Assembly (NCBI GenBank): GCA_039801885.1
Contig: JBDRVN010000011.1
Span: 1 to 37,516, forward strand
Reading direction: 5' to 3'
Source of the DNA: a candidate division WOR-3 bacterium
GTDB taxonomy: Bacteria; Hydrothermota; Tepidihabitantia; Tepidihabitantales; DTDR01
Length of the DNA: 37,516 nt
Positions within the stretch are counted from its first letter, which is position 1; each line of letters opens with the position of its first letter. A program made the position numbers and the translations under genes. The notes beneath the pieces were generated by a model that made no database searches, was not told the origin of the DNA, and saw only the letters and a list, made by a program, of their open reading frames with translations. Shown in pieces: positions 17,430 through 26,482 of this stretch.

Positions 17430-17936
17430 ATGGAATGGGAAAGAAAGATAAGTAATTTATTTAAACTTAATAGTGATGAAATGTGGCTGAGACATGCTAA
17501 TCCTCTAAGTGTTTATTCCCGTTTTTCTATGCTTCCTCTTTTGGCGATATCTTTTTGGAGTAGGGTATGGTTTGGTTGGCGGTCTCTTATTCCAATAATT
17601 GCTGTTTTATTCTGGTTATGGCTTAATCCCAGAATATTTCCCAAAGCAAAAAGCACTAATAATTGGGCATCAAAAGCAGTCTTAGGTGAACGGGTTTGGA
17701 CGAATCGTAAAGAAATACCTATTCCCAAACATCATCGTACTCTGCCGAATATTTTATCAATAGTTGGACTAATTGGATTTATCTTTTTTATCTATGGTTT
17801 ATATACCTTAGAATTAAGTCCAACAATTTTAGGTGGTATAATAAGTTTTATTAGTAAAATCTGGTTTTGTGACCGAATGGTATGGTTATATGAAGATATG
17901 AAGCATTTACCAGAATATAAAAACTGGCTATATTAA
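17430..17936 (+). CDS. DUF6653-like membrane protein
   Basis: W.RHANP.SVYSR, WLNPRIFP, WASKAVLGERVW, K.WF.DRMVWLY; several TM segments. Confidence 0.7.
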   Translation: MEWERKISNLFKLNSDEMWLRHANPLSVYSRFSMLPLLAISFWSRVWFGWRSLIPIIAVLFWLWLNPRIFPKAKSTNNWASKAVLGERVWTNRKEIPIPKHHRTLPNILSIVGLIGFIFFIYGLYTLELSPTILGGIISFISKIWFCDRMVWLYEDMKHLPEYKNWLY

Positions 17937-17945
17937 TGAACGAAA

Positions 17946-18344
17946 TTATATTTCTCTAATTAACTTTGAAACAGCAAGAAGGGCGGCTTTAATAATTATA
18001 TCGGCAGTTATACTCTCATACACCTTACCATTTAGTTCAATTGTTCGACATTCCGAAGAACCACAAACACTACAACAAGGACTCTTTCCCACTTTTCCTG
18101 AAAGATAATCTTCTATTGGAAGGTTATTAATCAAAATTTTATTTGATTGTAAAGGGTCTTTTTTAAACTCGGAAATAGAAATTTCTTCTTTTTTAAAAAT
18201 TACTTCAATTCCCATAGAAAGAAGAGATTGGGAAAGAAAAGAAACTGCTTTCTCTAATTCCTTATCAGTTTGGTCGCATCTTGGACAGGTTTCGCCTTTA
18301 TAAACCAATCTCTGCCATTTAATTTCTAAAATCTTTTTACTCAT
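17946..18344 (-). CDS. DUF2703 family thioredoxin-like protein
   Basis: WQRLV..GETCPRC..T, SN.ILIN, CCSVCG..ECRT. Confidence 0.8.
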   Translation of the reverse strand: MSKKILEIKWQRLVYKGETCPRCDQTDKELEKAVSFLSQSLLSMGIEVIFKKEEISISEFKKDPLQSNKILINNLPIEDYLSGKVGKSPCCSVCGSSECRTIELNGKVYESITADIIIKAALLAVSKLIREI

Positions 18345-19344
18345 TTAATTTCTTATCTATTAGATAGGTGCCGATTGGGTCAGCGATACTTAAAGTAATT
18401 AAAGTTATCCCCCATTTGGTTCTATCCCAATTTTCAGAAGCAATCAAAACCACTGTTCCCAAAATTATTCCTTCAATCATTCTGGGCGCAAAAGATACCA
18501 ATAAAGCCTTGCCCAAAGATAAATCCCTTTCTTTACTCATTTTATATCCAAAATAATAACCGAGACAACTACCGAGCAAAGAAGAAAGGGCAACAGAATT
18601 TTTATTAAAGAAATCTTTATTCGTCAATAATTCCATTCCTCCTAAAAAGGCTATCGGACTTGTTATTCCTAATCGGGCATATTCCAATTCACAAAAGGCA
18701 TCGCCGAAAGTAATATTTTTCTCTTTAGATAAAATGATTGAACCACAATAACCTTCCAAAGCAGGTAAGAAAGCATAAAGGTGAAACCAATACTTAAATT
18801 TAGGCAAATCTCTTTCATCATAATATTTAATTGTTAACAATTGAATAAAAACAGAATGAGAAATTCCTAAAATATTAAAATTAAGGTATCGCCAGGCATC
18901 TTCCACACCAAATTTAAGTTTCTCACTTAGAAAATAACCACCGATATTTTCAGTAAGGCTGAAAATCAAAGGAAGAGTATATTCGTTTATTTTATTATTA
19001 GGATTCCAAACAGGATTTAACCAAGCCCCACGCCATACACCACCAATTCCACCAAAGAAAGATTGTAAGGGAGTGCCACTTGCTTTTACCTTACGAACCC
19101 GCGAAGAAGCAAAAAAGGAAATTGCCGGTGTCCATAATCCGACAGCAATTGCTAACCTATCTTTTAATCCAAGACCCAAAGGCAATGTCCAAGAGTAAAA
19201 CCCGATACCTAAAACAACCTCCGAAGCAATAAAATAACTTCTATAATTTATCTCTTTTATTGGTTTCTCTTCTTTTAAGGTATCTTCTTGAGAAAATAAA
19301 AAAGTTAAAAATATTAAAAAAAGAAATATTATTTTTACTCTCAT
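18337..19344 (-). CDS. Hypothetical membrane protein with signal peptide
   Basis: 335-aa ORF with a signal peptide, several Gly-rich hydrophobic helices and an overlap with the next gene. Confidence 0.65.
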   Translation of the reverse strand: MRVKIIFLFLIFLTFLFSQEDTLKEEKPIKEINYRSYFIASEVVLGIGFYSWTLPLGLGLKDRLAIAVGLWTPAISFFASSRVRKVKASGTPLQSFFGGIGGVWRGAWLNPVWNPNNKINEYTLPLIFSLTENIGGYFLSEKLKFGVEDAWRYLNFNILGISHSVFIQLLTIKYYDERDLPKFKYWFHLYAFLPALEGYCGSIILSKEKNITFGDAFCELEYARLGITSPIAFLGGMELLTNKDFFNKNSVALSSLLGSCLGYYFGYKMSKERDLSLGKALLVSFAPRMIEGIILGTVVLIASENWDRTKWGITLITLSIADPIGTYLIDKKLNE

Positions 19345-19363
19345 ATTATAAAAAAATAACTGT

Positions 19364-19885
19364 TTAAAAAGTTAAGCCAACCGAAAAACCTCCCCAAGGT
19401 CTTATTTCAAGTTTCTTTATTTGGTTTCCTAAACGATCTCTTTCTTCTTTAAAATTGAAAAAAGGTGTAAAAGACACTCGTAAGAGAACACTTTTTTTTA
19501 TTGGTTGATATCTGTAACCTAAACAACAATTTGGAATAAATTCACTTTTAGCCTCTCCCCAAAAAGAAGAAGCCTTTAACCACATTACGCCTATCCCTGC
19601 TTCAAAATGATGAGAAGAATTATTATCAGTAATAAAATTCAGAGAAATTGGAAAACCATAGCCGAAAAGAAAAAAGGAAGCGCCTATTCTAAATGTAGAA
19701 TTAGTAATAAAGCGATAATCATAATTTAAAGAAAATATTAACCCTTGGCCACCAATTTCAAAGTATACTCCATTACTACTAAAATCTTCAAGAGTATTCT
19801 TCTCTTTTCCTAAAACCTCTGAACCGTAAGTAAAAAAATTTCCAATGCCAATAATTAATAAAAAGATAAAGATATCCCTTTTCAT
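19364..19885 (-). CDS. Hypothetical small outer-membrane beta-barrel protein
   Basis: Signal peptide, alternating aromatic/Gly strands (VYFEIGG, SLNYDY, LGYRYQP) and C-terminal GFSVGLTF. Confidence 0.7.
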   Translation of the reverse strand: MKRDIFIFLLIIGIGNFFTYGSEVLGKEKNTLEDFSSNGVYFEIGGQGLIFSLNYDYRFITNSTFRIGASFFLFGYGFPISLNFITDNNSSHHFEAGIGVMWLKASSFWGEAKSEFIPNCCLGYRYQPIKKSVLLRVSFTPFFNFKEERDRLGNQIKKLEIRPWGGFSVGLTF

Positions 19886-22341: not shown

Positions 22342-22369
22342 TTGAAAATTTATTTAAGATTTCTATAAT
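22342..22369 (+). promoter_or_regulatory. Promoter of the DUF6754 operon (probably leaderless)
   Basis: TTGAAA-16bp-TATAAT ending 5 nt before ATG 22375; no SD. Confidence 0.65.
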
Positions 22370-22374
22370 TTCTA

Positions 22375-23448
22375 ATGTTTTTATTTCTTCTTTTTACTTT
22401 TATAATTGAGCCGCCAAAAAATGTGAAAGCCATTGACAATCCTAATGATGACGGAAATAAGATTTTAATAACTTGGGAATTATCTCCTTCGGATTCGATT
22501 TTGGATGGTTATGAGATATTAAGAAGAAGTGAAAAAGAAGAATGTTTTTATAAGATTGGTTTTGTTGGTCCAAATAGAAATAGTTTCTTGGATGAAAATA
22601 CCGAAGATAACTTAAATTATTATTATCAAATAGTTGCTGTCAAAGATACAATAAAAGTTTTGTCAGAAATTTCTCAACCAGCAAAAAGTTATCCCCAATG
22701 GTTTAATAAAGGTAAATTAATCATTCTATTGACTTTTTTTCTCTTTGGTTTCTTGATTTTATATTTTATAAAAAGGGCAAGAAAGATTGAGTTGTTTATT
22801 AGAAGGATAGCCGGTTTAAGTGCGGTGGAAGAAGCGGTTGGCAGGGCAACGGAGATGGGCAAGCCGGTTTTATTTGTTCCTGGTTTAAGTGGGATGTCGG
22901 ATGTAGCAACAATTGCGGCATTAAATATCCTTTCGGAAGTTGCCAAGAAGATTGCCCAGTATGATGTGAAATTGATTGTGCCGAATAATGACCCAATCGT
23001 TTATACGGTTGCCCGAGAAATAGTAAAAGAAGCGTATACGAGTATTGGCAAACCTGATGCCTTCAATCCTGATTCAGTATTTTATCTCACCGATTCCCAA
23101 TTTGCTTATGCGGCTGGTGTTGATGGAATAATGGTGAGAGAAAGACCGGCAACCAATTTCTTTTGTGGATATTTCTATGCTGAATCATTAATCTTGGCAG
23201 AAACCGGTGCCCAAACCGGTGCTATCCAAATTGCTGCTACTGACTCAATCACCCAATTACCATTTTTTATTGTTGCCTGTGATTATACTTTAATTGGTGA
23301 AGAACTTTATGCCGCCTCTGCCTATCTTTCAAAAGAACCAATTCTTCTTGGCTCTTTAAAAGGTCAGGATTATGGGAAGTTTTTAATAATCATTATTTTA
23401 ACCTTTCTTTCAATAATTTCTTTGCTTTTTAACTTTGTCATAAAATGA
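22375..23448 (+). CDS. FN3 domain + DUF6754 membrane protein
   Basis: Short signal; FN3-like PKNVKA.D.PND.G.KI.ITW...GYEILR...YYYQIVAV; a TM; then IRRIAGL.A.EEAVGRATEMGKP...AESLILAE.G....AIQIA...LPFF..ACDYTLIGEELYAASAYL; C-terminal TM. Confidence 0.85.
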   Translation: MFLFLLFTFIIEPPKNVKAIDNPNDDGNKILITWELSPSDSILDGYEILRRSEKEECFYKIGFVGPNRNSFLDENTEDNLNYYYQIVAVKDTIKVLSEISQPAKSYPQWFNKGKLIILLTFFLFGFLILYFIKRARKIELFIRRIAGLSAVEEAVGRATEMGKPVLFVPGLSGMSDVATIAALNILSEVAKKIAQYDVKLIVPNNDPIVYTVAREIVKEAYTSIGKPDAFNPDSVFYLTDSQFAYAAGVDGIMVRERPATNFFCGYFYAESLILAETGAQTGAIQIAATDSITQLPFFIVACDYTLIGEELYAASAYLSKEPILLGSLKGQDYGKFLIIIILTFLSIISLLFNFVIK

Positions 23449-24101
23449 AGGTAAGGTTTCCTTTGATTTTGTGTTTAATAATGGGAATAATTGGTATGGT
23501 TGCCTATTATGTTCCCCATAAGGCAGTCCAAAATTTTGATAACGAATTAAGAAATACCGCATTAAGGATTATCTTTGCCTTTTCATTAGTTTTAGGAGTT
23601 GGTAGTATTATTCGCCATCATTGGGAGAAGATAAAAAGAAAGAGGGAGTTTTGGGAATATAGTTATGTAACTTTAATCTCCCTTTTCTTGACTGCCTTTA
23701 TTGGTTTATTTGGCGGTATTGACGGCAGAGGACTTATCAAAATGGAGATTGGTAAATTCTCTTTTGATATTCAGACAATTTATGTGAATATGGCAATTCC
23801 TTTGGGTGCGACAATGTTTTCTTTGCTTGCCTATTTTATGGCATCAGCAGCCTATCGGGCATTTCGCGCAAGAAATTTAGAAGCAATTTTGTTATTAGTT
23901 GCTGCCTTTATTGTGATGCTTGCCTCTGTTCCACCAGTTGCCCGACTGATTCCAAAACTACCTTATATCTCTGAGTGGATTTTAGATGTCCCTAATACCG
24001 CAGCAAAAAGGGGAATGCTATTTGGCATTACATTAGGAGTTTTGTCAACTTCCTTAAAAATATTATTAGGCATTGAAAGAGGTTGGTTAGGTGGTAAGTA
24101 G
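23445..24101 (+). CDS. Multi-pass membrane protein of the DUF6754 operon
   Basis: About 6 hydrophobic segments; TMFSLLAYFMASAAYRAFRAR, WILDVPNTAAKRG, SLKILLGIER; ATGA overlap with the upstream gene. Confidence 0.85.
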   Translation: MKVRFPLILCLIMGIIGMVAYYVPHKAVQNFDNELRNTALRIIFAFSLVLGVGSIIRHHWEKIKRKREFWEYSYVTLISLFLTAFIGLFGGIDGRGLIKMEIGKFSFDIQTIYVNMAIPLGATMFSLLAYFMASAAYRAFRARNLEAILLLVAAFIVMLASVPPVARLIPKLPYISEWILDVPNTAAKRGMLFGITLGVLSTSLKILLGIERGWLGGK

Positions 24102-24927
24102 AAGAATTATCTATTTAATTTTAACATTGGTTATCTTAATTCCCCTTTTAAGACCCTTTAAATTAAAACCACTGCCAATGAAACCAGTTGAGAAACTATT
24201 TTATTATATCAACAATATACCAAAAGATAAGGCATTATTAATCTCGGTTGATTATACACCCGATACCGAAGCCGAATTACATCCAATGACGATTGCCTTA
24301 TTAAAACATGCCTTCCATAAGAAAATAAAAGTTGGTGTCTTGACCCTAACTCTATTAGGTTTGGGATTAGCCGAAGATGCTTTACAAGTTGTTTTAAAGG
24401 AGTTTAATGAAAAGGCAAAAACGAGGGAAGATAGCATTATCTATGGCAGAGATTATGTTTTTCTTGGTTGGCAAACACCACCATTAGTTCCTTTGCTTGG
24501 TATGGGAGAAAGTATTACAAAAGTATTTCCCGTTGATTATTATGGAAATAAAACCGATACCTTACCATTATTAAAAGAGATAAAAAATTATCGGGATGTT
24601 GGTATTGTTGTTTCTATTTCTGGTTCGGCAATACCGATGTGGTATGTTACCTATGCTCAGACAACTTTTGGTGTAAAAGTTGGCGCTGGTTTTACTGCAG
24701 TTTCCGCTGCCGATTATTATCCTTATTTAAATTCCGGACAATTAACCGGCTTACTTGCTGGTATGCGTGGTGGTGCTGAATATGAAGAACTTTTAGAAGA
24801 ACATTTCGGCAAGACAAAAAGAAGAAAGGCAACCGAAGCAATGTCTGCCCAAACTACTGCGCATATCGCAATTATTATATTAATCATTATTGGAAATATA
24901 ATCTATTTTTATAGAAAAAAGAAATGA
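24091..24927 (+). CDS. Membrane-anchored alpha/beta-domain protein of the DUF6754 operon (probable distant DUF6754 paralogue)
   Basis: N- and C-terminal TMs around a soluble domain; DY.P....EL.PM, YGRDYVFLG, TAVSA...YPYL.SGQL.GLL.GMRGGAEYE; GTG start overlaps the upstream gene. Confidence 0.85.
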   Translation: MVSRRIIYLILTLVILIPLLRPFKLKPLPMKPVEKLFYYINNIPKDKALLISVDYTPDTEAELHPMTIALLKHAFHKKIKVGVLTLTLLGLGLAEDALQVVLKEFNEKAKTREDSIIYGRDYVFLGWQTPPLVPLLGMGESITKVFPVDYYGNKTDTLPLLKEIKNYRDVGIVVSISGSAIPMWYVTYAQTTFGVKVGAGFTAVSAADYYPYLNSGQLTGLLAGMRGGAEYEELLEEHFGKTKRRKATEAMSAQTTAHIAIIILIIIGNIIYFYRKKK

Positions 24928-25547
24928 GCACTGATATTTGGGTTTGGATAGCAGCACTTTTAACATTAGGAATTTTCTCTTTCTTATATAAAGATAATCC
25001 CTTTTATCGCTTTTGTGAACATCTCTTTGTTGGTATAACAAATGGTTATGCGATAACTTTCTATTGGCACAGAATTTTAGTTCCCAGTTTGATAAATCCT
25101 GTTTCGCGCGGTGAGAAATTATATCTTCTAATATTTGCCTTTATTGGTGCCTTATATTTTACAAGATTTATCCCAAGATTATCTTGGTTAGTAAGAATTC
25201 CTATCGCCTTTGTTTTAGGTTATGGTGCTGGTGCGGCAATACCAAGAACAATTGAAGCATCAATCATTGAACAGACAAAGGCAACAATCTTACAAAGAAG
25301 TAATTTCCTAAACCTTTTTGATGGCATCTCCTCAATTATTATCTTCTTTGGTGTTATTGCGACAATTATCTACTTCTTCTTCTCAACCGAAAGAAAGGGA
25401 ATACTTAAACATCTTTCCTACTCAGGAATTATCTTTATTATGCTTGGCTTTGGTGCCTCCTTTGGCTATACGGTAATGGCAAGAATTTCCTTACTCATTG
25501 GTCGGCTCACTTTCTTATTAAGAGATTGGCTTGGCATTATAAAATAA
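24924..25547 (+). CDS. Multi-pass membrane protein of the DUF6754 operon
   Basis: LTLGIFSFLYKDNPFYRFCEHLFVG, YFFFS.E, MLGFGASFGYTVMARISLLIGR; ATGA overlap. Confidence 0.85.
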   Translation: MSTDIWVWIAALLTLGIFSFLYKDNPFYRFCEHLFVGITNGYAITFYWHRILVPSLINPVSRGEKLYLLIFAFIGALYFTRFIPRLSWLVRIPIAFVLGYGAGAAIPRTIEASIIEQTKATILQRSNFLNLFDGISSIIIFFGVIATIIYFFFSTERKGILKHLSYSGIIFIMLGFGASFGYTVMARISLLIGRLTFLLRDWLGIIK

Positions 25548-25772: not shown

Positions 25773-26128
25773 GGGGGCGAACGGGTTTTCGACGGAGCGG
25801 ATTGAGGGACTTAGGAGCATGGCGGTTTTCCTCTATTTTGCCGAAAAAAATAGAGGAAAAAACAACTGCCAACACTGGTAGTTACGCACTTGCTGCTTAA
25901 TTGAAAAGCAGCAGCCTCGCTTAGGTTCGCATCCGACCTAAGTTGAGGTTAAGGAATGGATGCTTAAAGCCTTTCTTTTGTTGCCGAAGAAAGACTGGAT
26001 AATAAAGGCAACTGGCAAGGTTCTGCCTGTCGGTTGGCGAAGAACCTTGCGAGATAAATAAACCGACTAACCATGTAGAGCCTAAGTCCGAAACGTTCCG
26101 GACGCGGGTTCAATTCCCGCCGCCTCCA
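25773..26128 (+). ncRNA. ssrA: tmRNA; tag peptide (A)ANTGSYALAA
   Basis: 5' GGGGGCG...TTCGAC pairs with 3' CGCCTCC-A; T-arm GCGGGTTCAATTCCCGC; tag ORF 25868-25900 ending YALAA*; CCA not encoded. Confidence 0.97.
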
Positions 26129-26186
26129 TTATTTTTTTATTTAATCCAAAATAAATTTTATGTGGCGAAAATTAAAAAGTGAGATT

Positions 26187-26482
26187 TTAATAACTATTGG
26201 TTATATTCTTTCTCCTTTCTCTTAGTGGAATGATGCTTTTATCAATATTCCATTCCAATTTTTTATCTCTTTGGTTTTTTATTTTCTCTGATTTCCCGTA
26301 AACTTTTTTTGCCAATAACAACTTATTGGCTAACCAATCTTTTAGGAATTCTTTTGATGTACAAAGGCACATTAGATTTATTATCTAAAGAGAAATATTC
26401 TAAGAAAAATTATTAATTGGTTTAATTTTCGCAACTTTTTATACTCTTTTAATAATAATTCTTGCCCTCTTTTTTAACTTTC
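26187..26482 (-). pseudogene. Possible decayed small gene(s), with weak Phd/YefM antitoxin-like traces
   Basis: Fragments RKVKKEG / RIIIKRV*KVAKIKP in adjacent frames, followed by a 61-aa ORF without SD. Confidence 0.2.

Follow-up and report, generated by a model that had tools for sequence, protein, structure and literature searches.

A conserved DUF6754 membrane cassette from a candidate division WOR-3 bacterium and its genomic link to an actin-fold ATPase

What kind of system is encoded by four overlapping membrane-protein genes, only one of which falls into a named family? This question is raised by a locus of a candidate division WOR-3 bacterium (assembly GCA_039801885.1), located at 22375-25547 in a stretch of 37,516 nucleotides that was analysed as a whole and is called the window here (contig JBDRVN010000011.1, positions 1 to 37,516, forward strand). 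An initial annotation of this DNA had proposed an inverted, pseudo-symmetric heterotetramer with the function of a secondary transporter or channel. In our analysis the four-gene cassette is real, strongly conserved and unlike any characterised kind of system, and the window holds one copy among thousands. Across genomes the cassette is linked to, and co-occurs with, an actin-fold ATPase (N2) and a partner protein (N1). Our tentative reading is that interchangeable four-subunit membrane units are served by one shared ATPase engine and carry out ATP-powered transport of some cargo.

The four-gene cassette

The genes are called g1 to g4 and are assigned to candidate subunits A to D. Their window coordinates are:

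22375-23448, plus strand: g1 (subunit A), 357 amino acids (aa); N-terminal hydrophobic stretch resembling an export signal, FN3 domain, transmembrane (TM) helix, cytoplasmic DUF6754 alpha/beta domain, TM helix
23445-24101, plus strand: g2 (subunit B), 218 aa; polytopic, 6 TM segments, both termini inside by the bias in Lys and Arg (K+R); no family
24091-24927, plus strand: g3 (subunit C), 278 aa, GTG start; TM helix, extracytoplasmic alpha/beta domain, TM helix; no Pfam family
24924-25547, plus strand: g4 (subunit D), 207 aa; 4 strongly hydrophobic and 2 Gly/Ala-rich segments, C-terminal amphipathic helix; no family

The overlapping stop and start codons of the four membrane-protein genes had already been seen in the initial annotation. 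Their exact coordinates give overlaps of 4 nt (g1/g2), 11 nt (g2/g3) and 4 nt (g3/g4). Near-identical DNA is contained in hot-spring metagenome runs from at least three studies. In the metagenome contigs, 34 of the 40 best-supported strain differences (of 159 in all) lie within g1-g3, and 31 of these 34 fall on codon position 3. Hence the reading frames of g1-g3 are under purifying selection.

Residues 107-349 of g1 match PF20539 (DUF6754) with an E value of 1.3e-116 and 388.7 bits over model positions 3-246 of 257. As the gathering cut-off of this family is 27 bits, g1 is a member of DUF6754 far above the threshold. The match of g1 to the fn3 family was weak and below threshold (E 0.0093), and g2, g3 and g4 matched no Pfam or NCBIfam family over any cut-off. 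When every alignment member of g2 and g4 (62 each) was compared with Pfam at E<=1, scattered weak matches appeared in at most 15 and 19 of the 62 members, respectively. With best E values of 0.00022 and 0.003 they were rejected as hydrophobic noise. That DUF6754 has no assigned function, as stated before, agrees with the Pfam entry, which carries none; a literature search, with subscription journals and supplements outside its scope, found no paper on DUF6754/PF20539, nor on PF13941 (see below) or on GlmL together with ASKHA.

Four elements can be placed on g1:

22399-22689, plus strand: residues 9-105, FN3 domain, extracytoplasmic; pLDDT 91-98, profile matches to FN3 chains
22708-22785, plus strand: residues 112-137, TM helix 1, by model and hydropathy; followed on the cytoplasmic side by the K/R-rich KRARK...RR
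22792-23349, plus strand: residues 140-325, six-stranded cytoplasmic alpha/beta (Rossmann-like) core of DUF6754, by model; the most conserved element of the cassette
23356-23427, plus strand: residues 328-351, TM helix 2, by model and hydropathy, with the C terminus outside

The AlphaFold2 model of g1 (27-row alignment) had a mean pLDDT of 81.5 and shows a helix a0 and six beta-alpha units at residues 146-318. Its FN3 domain aligned with an FN3 domain of titin over 94 residues (VIA Z 13.8, rmsd 2.1), in line with the earlier assignment of an exported FN3 domain. The g3 model (26-row alignment; pLDDT 91.1, pTM 0.88) consists of a TM helix at residues 4-20, a helix a0, six beta-alpha units at 48-239 (a3 and b4 are separated by an insert) and a second TM helix at 246-277; the outer domain spans about residues 45-240. 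Both models thus have the element order TM-a0-(beta-alpha)6-TM. The motif pairs that had been aligned by eye between g1 and g3 fall on equivalent elements in the two models, namely b1, b3, b5, b6 and the last TM helix.

TM segments and orientations were derived from family-averaged hydropathy and K+R counts. Besides its N-terminal hydrophobic stretch g1 has two TM segments, g2 has six, g3 has two, and g4 has four strong and two weaker Gly/Ala-rich ones. By the charge counts, g1 has its N terminus outside, its domain inside (KRARK..RR after TM1) and its C terminus outside. In g3 both K/R-rich termini are inside, which puts its domain outside. The proposal that the two domains lie on opposite faces of the membrane finds support in these counts. 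Both termini of g2 are inside, and g4 possibly has its N terminus outside, the counts being ambiguous. Of the earlier description of g2 and g4 as Gly/Ala-rich proteins with 5-6 TM segments, the six segments of g2 were recovered; for g4 four are clear, two are of the Gly/Ala-rich type and the orientation stays ambiguous.

Fold searches added little. In profile searches against the PDB, g1 matched only FN3 chains and the DUF6754 part found no relative; g3 and N1 had nothing under E 0.019, and g2 and g4 had no matches. With whole g1 as the query, FN3 chains took up the match lists of both Foldseek and VIA, which therefore hardly bear on the DUF6754 domain. The g3 model had no Foldseek match at E<=0.001. 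In the ESM Atlas the proteins met their own unnamed or DUF6754 clusters only.

For the survey of other genomes, an A-B-C-D cassette was defined operationally, not as a curated family, by homologues of all four genes in that order on one strand. The window copy is such a cassette. A second, complete one is present in the same genome (contig C42, locus L003 3683-6952; 381, 232, 273 and 204 aa), with identities to the window copy of 50, 38, 38 and 50% for g1-g4. By eye, its flanking translations look like an aspartyl-tRNA synthetase and a repeat-rich membrane-anchored protein. Of 201 sampled genomes of the phylum, 185 had DUF6754 (1-7 matches per genome), compared with none of 14 model-organism control genomes; E. 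coli has no homologue. At E<=1e-3 the g3 family comprises 5186 representatives of 50%-identity clusters; a limit of E<=1e-30 leaves 1277 of them.

Co-conservation of the four genes, which had been suggested as a check, was found: all 20 loci examined in the phylum keep the order g1-g2-g3-g4, and so do nearly all of 80 further loci, from more than 10 phyla. These 80 are the loci kept from a g3 pattern scan that gave at least 544 loci in species genomes. Carriers include WOR-3/Stahlbacteria, Eisenbacteria, TA06, Zixibacteria, Cloacimonadota, Latescibacterota, anammox Planctomycetota, Poribacteria, Ignavibacteria and others; some Bacillota have the cassette, too. The exceptions were loci truncated by contig ends, one rearranged locus (L122, g2-g3-g4-g1) and loci with an extra g1 or g3. 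Whole cassettes are repeated in tandem in five loci of the phylum (L035, L038, L043, L047, L050).

Some variants of the cassette were seen on the way. Before or inside a complete cassette there is an extra tandem g1 in L035, L055, L090, L094 and L131 and an extra g3 in L110 and L131. The subunit ratio may therefore differ from 1:1:1:1; another possibility is that one B-C-D set serves alternative A subunits. A gap of 2.2 kb between g2 and g3 was seen in one genome of the phylum (L051 3486-5253). Read by eye, the open reading frames (ORFs) in this gap are a 229-aa protein like IS200/REP-type transposases and a 239-aa repeat protein; the gap looks like an insertion and was rejected as a source of a fifth subunit. 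The sequence P0086, considered as a fusion of C and D, was rejected for its lack of similarity to g4.

Conservation is graded along the cassette. The cytoplasmic domain of A has a mean pairwise identity of 67.5% (minimum 53%), its FN3 domain of 29.6% and its TM helices of 33-40% (60 sequences, including paralogues and many phyla). The values were 50.4% for B, 45.5% for the outer domain of C and 50.7% for D. About 36 positions of A are invariant, among them R143, G156-R157-A158-T159-E160, E270, E276, Q285, Q294, F297-F298, D303-Y304 and G308-E309-E310; many are acidic or glycine and lie at the C-terminal ends of strands. In g3 the invariant residues E62, D149, Q217 and E230-Y231-E232 are common to the paralogues. 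The outer parts vary in kind as well. A carries one to several FN3 copies or HEAT repeats, and inserts in C are CARDB, HEAT or unassigned. Long A subunits had only FN3, HEAT or a sub-threshold stretch like GH85_C, and in nine long planctomycete A subunits no Pfam domain was found besides DUF6754. Some A subunits, forms of 260-283 aa, are without an outer domain.

Genomic linkage to an actin-fold ATPase, and the surroundings of the cassette

To identify companions of the cassette, 996 flanking ORFs from 100 loci were clustered all against all. In 15 of the 100 loci, from at least 7 phyla, g1 is immediately preceded, in the same orientation, by two genes, N2 followed by N1. N2 is a protein of about 600 aa and belongs to the actin-fold clan (PF13941, MutL/GlmL, E 1e-130). 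N1, about 375 aa long, has no family; it gave sub-threshold matches to biotinyl/lipoyl-type domains and to the RnfC_N barrel (E 0.003-0.013 for the latter, below cut-off) and has a KOW-like tail. A third protein of roughly 100 aa, N3, precedes N2 in 7 loci. The other families from this clustering were unrelated ones; besides N1, N2 and N3 it contained no recurrent metabolic or partner family.

The genome of the window encodes one N2 (PF13941, E 5.7e-130), one N1 (E 7.9e-133) and two cassettes. The N3-N2 pair (101 aa and 615 aa) lies on contig C38 (locus L137 6787-8878, minus strand). N1 (375 aa) lies on contig C3 (locus L136 11783-12910, minus strand), 107 nt from the contig end. Hence this genome has the cassette together with N2 and N1, and the genes are unlinked to the cassettes. 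This result undermines the premise of a transporter without an ATPase: the cassette is genomically tied to an ASKHA ATPase of GlmL/MutL type and to the partner of this ATPase, whose genes both lie at other places in the genome.

Presence and absence follow the same pattern. N1 was found in 180 of the 201 genomes of the phylum, mostly as a single match. The genus g42 has neither N1 nor DUF6754 in 15 of 15 genomes; since these genomes are kin, the absence is one evolutionary event and counts once. Among 151 Planctomycetota genomes, a sample in which the system has a patchy distribution, 40 had DUF6754 and 38 had N1. Both occurred in 37, DUF6754 only in 3, N1 only in 1 (a fragment at a contig edge) and neither in 110. 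MutL was present in 39 of them, in 38 together with DUF6754; 2 had DUF6754 only and 1 a weak MutL match only. Of the 37 Planctomycetota genomes with both, at least 23 have N1 immediately upstream of a DUF6754 gene by coordinates. In five Planctomycetota genomes (G217, G228, G252, G288, G350) extra, divergent genes of MutL type lie beside partial N1-like matches, some with in-frame stops, which points to a paralogous or decaying second pair of ATPase and partner.

N2 keeps the invariant stretches DxGSTTTK, DxGGATTD and GSGG, which we take to be the phosphate-1, phosphate-2 and adenosine motifs of ASKHA proteins. By these stretches, N2 looks like an active ATPase. Conservation of N2 and N1 is comparable (61% and 52% mean column identity). 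Overall, the cytoplasmic components are conserved and the membrane and outer parts evolve faster, as would be expected if many A paralogues had to fit one cytoplasmic partner.

N2 resembles GlmL/MutL, the accessory protein of the B12-dependent glutamate (methylaspartate) mutase, with PF13941 E values of 1e-129 to 1e-130. However, it differs from GlmL in several respects. The N2 of this genome was scanned against Pfam, and two N2 homologues (from L115 and L125) were scored with the GlmL equivalog NF040745; they reached 236 and 238.9 bits, below the cut-off of 475. N2 is extended at the C-terminal end by about 120 aa. Its gene in the genome of the window stands between N3 and an unrelated 124-aa ORF, and no mutase gene was present in the 11.7 kb read. 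Finally, N2 pairs with N1 and a membrane cassette.

The genes next to the cassette in the window are unrelated housekeeping genes: superoxide dismutase (SOD), a ferritin-like protein, AsnA, ribonucleotide reductase and IspG. Upstream of g1 lies one further feature:

22342-22369, plus strand: promoter-like site TTGAAA-16-TATAAT, 11/12 matches, 5 nt 5' of the g1 ATG

A single promoter for g1-g4, as claimed earlier, is plausible. The site is there; as evidence it is weak, because such sites are common in this AT-rich DNA. The scan, which has a low specificity, found 33 in 5.7 kb compared with 21.4 +/- 4.9 in shuffled sequences. The best -10 box ends 5 nt from the g1 ATG and leaves no space for a ribosome-binding site, so the g1 message may be leaderless, or the true promoter may lie further upstream.

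A tmRNA gene with the tag peptide ANTGSYALAA lies 226 nt 3' of g4 (window 25773-26128, plus strand). Over its 3' part (about 26049-26235) the summed contig depth was very high in each of the four metagenome runs, which is probably due to recruitment of contigs from other organisms by the conserved tRNA-like end. Upstream of the SOD and ferritin-like genes (window 17430-17936, plus strand, and 18337-19885, minus strand) lie the gene of a DUF6653 protein (E 1.7e-57) and two ORFs without a Pfam family, one of 335 aa that is membrane-like and one of 173 aa that looks like a beta-barrel by eye.

Candidate modes of action

How could such a set of proteins work? In the reading that we tentatively favour, ATP-powered transport by several units with one engine, the module would be an inner-membrane A-B-C-D unit that depends on the single-copy cytoplasmic proteins N2, N1 and N3. 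The small polytopic proteins B and D would form the membrane core. A would add the exported FN3 stalk and the conserved cytoplasmic domain, and C a Rossmann-like domain on the outer face. N2/N1 would dock on the cytoplasmic domain of A, and their ATP cycle would set the TM helices of A in motion relative to the B/D core. This movement would be relayed to the outer domain of C and thereby gate a path through B/D for the cargo. Several diverged A-B-C-D units per cell could share the one engine in the fashion of ECF/ABC importers. The physical contact of N2/N1 with A, the coupling to ATP and transport as the output are predictions from the sequences. A bolder version would see in the cassette with N3, N2 and N1 a new class of primary-active membrane machine, in which an ASKHA ATPase, in place of one of the ABC, P-type or rotary kind, powers interchangeable four-subunit units as it grips the conserved cytoplasmic Rossmann-like domain, and the TM-(beta-alpha)6-TM subunits are very old inverted duplicates that relay the movement across the membrane; this is possible, if doubtful.

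Several points weigh against ATP-driven transport. The literature search found no report of binding, ATPase activity or transport for any member. N2, N1 and the two cassettes occupy four separate contigs in this genome, so that their link here comes from comparative genomics only. The co-occurrence counts include related genomes, and the absence within the phylum is that of a single genus. DUF6754 occurs without a detected N1 or N2 in 6 of the 185 phylum genomes with DUF6754, and in 3 of 40 and 2 of 40, respectively, in Planctomycetota; incomplete assemblies may explain these cases. Unlike the diversified pockets expected for different substrates, the invariant residues of C are kept across paralogues. 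The outer additions FN3, CARDB and HEAT serve as scaffolds or in adhesion and do not belong to the solute-binding folds; they fit a mechanical output at least as well. Lastly, an enzymatic role of A is possible, the DUF6754 fold having been masked by FN3 in the search with whole g1.

Among the alternatives, the one that survives best keeps the module and its ATPase engine and changes the output. By analogy to mechanotransmission systems such as FtsEX, MacB or LolCDE, ATP-driven movements would be transmitted to the outside, where they would control or assemble a partner (for example an enzyme, an adhesin, or a component of the surface layer or wall) held by the FN3, CARDB or HEAT additions and by the outer domain of C. 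Every accessory extracytoplasmic domain that was identified is a protein-binding or spacer module. The invariant residues in the outer domain of C, common to all paralogues, are as expected for a constant mechanical interface, and the evidence for linkage to N2/N1 applies equally. However, the stalk is dispensable, since some A subunits (the short forms mentioned above) have no outer domain, and no partner gene recurs beside the cassette among the clustered flanking ORFs. Up to 7 copies per genome are also more easily explained by different cargos. On balance we consider a mechanical output rather unlikely.

The self-sufficient heterotetramer of the initial annotation, in which g1 pairs with g3 and g2 with g4 to form an ATPase-free secondary transporter or channel driven by an ion gradient, fares worse. 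Some of the evidence is in keeping with it: g1 and g3 share their element order and lie on opposite membrane faces by charge bias; g2 and g4 are of similar size, with the N terminus inside in g2 and possibly outside in g4; and the operon itself has no ATPase gene. Yet the relatedness on which the symmetry was based was not detected. Between g1 and g3, BLASTP gave an E value of 8.5 and hhalign a probability of 0.3% (27 and 26 rows) or 1.0% (60 rows each). Between g2 and g4 the values were E 0.053 and 2.2% (profiles of about 25 rows) or 2.7% (60-62 rows); the 60-62-row profiles span many phyla. By sequence, then, neither pair qualifies as the paralogous halves of an inverted-repeat transporter. 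Since no homology was detected within either pair, 'pseudo-symmetric' describes the architecture of the models only, a resemblance in one of the commonest folds, and the shared (beta-alpha)6 order may be convergent or may go back to an ancient duplication. The near-perfect co-occurrence and frequent adjacency with the ASKHA ATPase pair also speak against a self-sufficient carrier, and the extreme conservation of the cytoplasmic domain would have no role in a gradient-driven one. As for the ligand-binding domains on both faces and the FN3 catcher of substrate or partner that the annotation had envisaged, the constancy of the invariant g3 residues among paralogues speaks against diversified pockets for ligands. 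We regard this arrangement as improbable.

A prediction of the four-chain complex (g1 residues 106-357, g2, g3 as the partner, g4) gave scores of 0.55, 0.57 and 0.58. In the controls, replacement of the partner gave 0.00 and 0.00, and replacement of chain 1 gave 0.63, so that these scores were used neither for nor against binding.

The cassette could instead be a membrane-anchored enzyme or biosynthetic complex with a catalytic DUF6754 domain, acting for example on a lipid-linked or envelope precursor. N2/N1 could then be its activating or repair factor, the role that ASKHA proteins of the GlmL and reactivase types probably have for their enzymes. The high mean identity of that domain (67.5%) and its about 36 invariant positions, including the acidic E270, E276, D303, E309 and E310 at C-terminal ends of strands, are in its favour, and N2 has its closest named relatives among the accessory proteins of enzymes. 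On the other hand, no cofactor, nucleotide or catalytic motif was recognisable. Several diverged copies for one N2/N1 together with variable outer domains would be unusual for a biosynthetic enzyme, and the neighbouring genes here are unrelated housekeeping genes. An enzyme is hard to credit on this evidence.

A redox-free ion pump analogous to Rnf/Na+-NQR, with N1 in the place of NqrA/RnfC, g2/g4 as the paired 6-TM subunits and g3 as the TM-anchored outer domain, would have a resembling layout, with g2 and g4 as 6-TM proteins of about 200 aa and the sub-threshold RnfC_N barrel-sandwich matches of N1 in its favour, but is very improbable given the absence of Rnf-Nqr among the 25 most frequent families of the g2/g4 members (62 each, E<=1), of conserved cysteines or flavin-attachment motifs and of homology between g2 and g4.

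Comparison with known systems

The proposal that the four proteins belong to no characterised transporter family was borne out: none was matched in Pfam, NCBIfam and PDB profile searches or in the scans of g2/g4 members. Membership among ABC transporters was rejected, as the four proteins matched no ABC family at E<=1 in Pfam or NCBIfam and have no GxxxxGK[ST]. Membership in Rnf/Na+-NQR was rejected as well; no Rnf-Nqr family was found for g2, g3 and g4, whose cysteines (1, 0 and 1) are not invariant. The proteins g1 to g4 have 3, 1, 0 and 1 cysteines, respectively, and the pattern search found no CxxCH, CxxC or Walker-A (GxxxxGK[ST]) pattern in any of the proteins. With the family scans, this agrees with the earlier observation that they have no heme (CxxCH) or Fe-S motif and no ABC ATPase.

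Of the two named entries that touch the system, the Pfam entry DUF6754 is restricted to the TM-alpha/beta-TM part of subunit A and has no function assigned to it, while B, C and D lack a Pfam or NCBIfam model; the likeness of N2 to GlmL was discussed above. The outer domain of g3 resembles generic Rossmann-like domains. The best VIA match was 1kjn (MTH777; Z 9.8, rmsd 3.3, 140 residues aligned), followed by TrkA/RCK (Z 9.0 and 8.4), transhydrogenase dIII (8.3) and sirtuins (8.0-8.7), values in a range that VIA itself rates as a common arrangement. These relatives are cytoplasmic nucleotide binders, whereas the g3 domain is predicted to lie outside.

The engines of ATP-driven membrane transport and mechanotransmission that have been studied well are of the ABC, P-type, rotary, AAA+ and SecA-like kinds. 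The DUF6754 unit, with thousands of sequence clusters and a presence in most genomes of whole candidate phyla, has no studied member. If the coupling to ATP were true, no pairing of engine and membrane unit studied so far would be like it. Many uncultured anaerobes have a block of conserved 'hypothetical' genes that would then be explained, and the label 'glutamate mutase L', routinely given to N2, would be corrected.

As a functional analogy only, the cassette can be compared with ECF/ABC importers. In both, several membrane units face one cytoplasmic ATPase set; the numbers are 2 units and 1 set in this genome and up to 7 units and 1-2 sets in the phylum. In both, the cytoplasmic part for coupling, a predicted one in the cassette, is the most conserved. 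The cassette differs in that it has no ABC ATPase, no Walker A and no match to an ABC or ECF family, and in that the ATPase linked to it has an actin fold.

In the type VII ABC mechanotransmission systems (FtsEX, MacB, LolCDE), ATP hydrolysis in the cytoplasm is relayed to extracytoplasmic domains that hold a partner. Again by analogy only, the cassette is like them in that its outer additions are protein-binding modules. It differs in subunit composition, and no relation by sequence or family was found. The nearest functional analogues of the cassette would be importers with a shared engine or the type VII ABC mechanotransmitters, with the difference that its engine would be an actin-fold ATPase.

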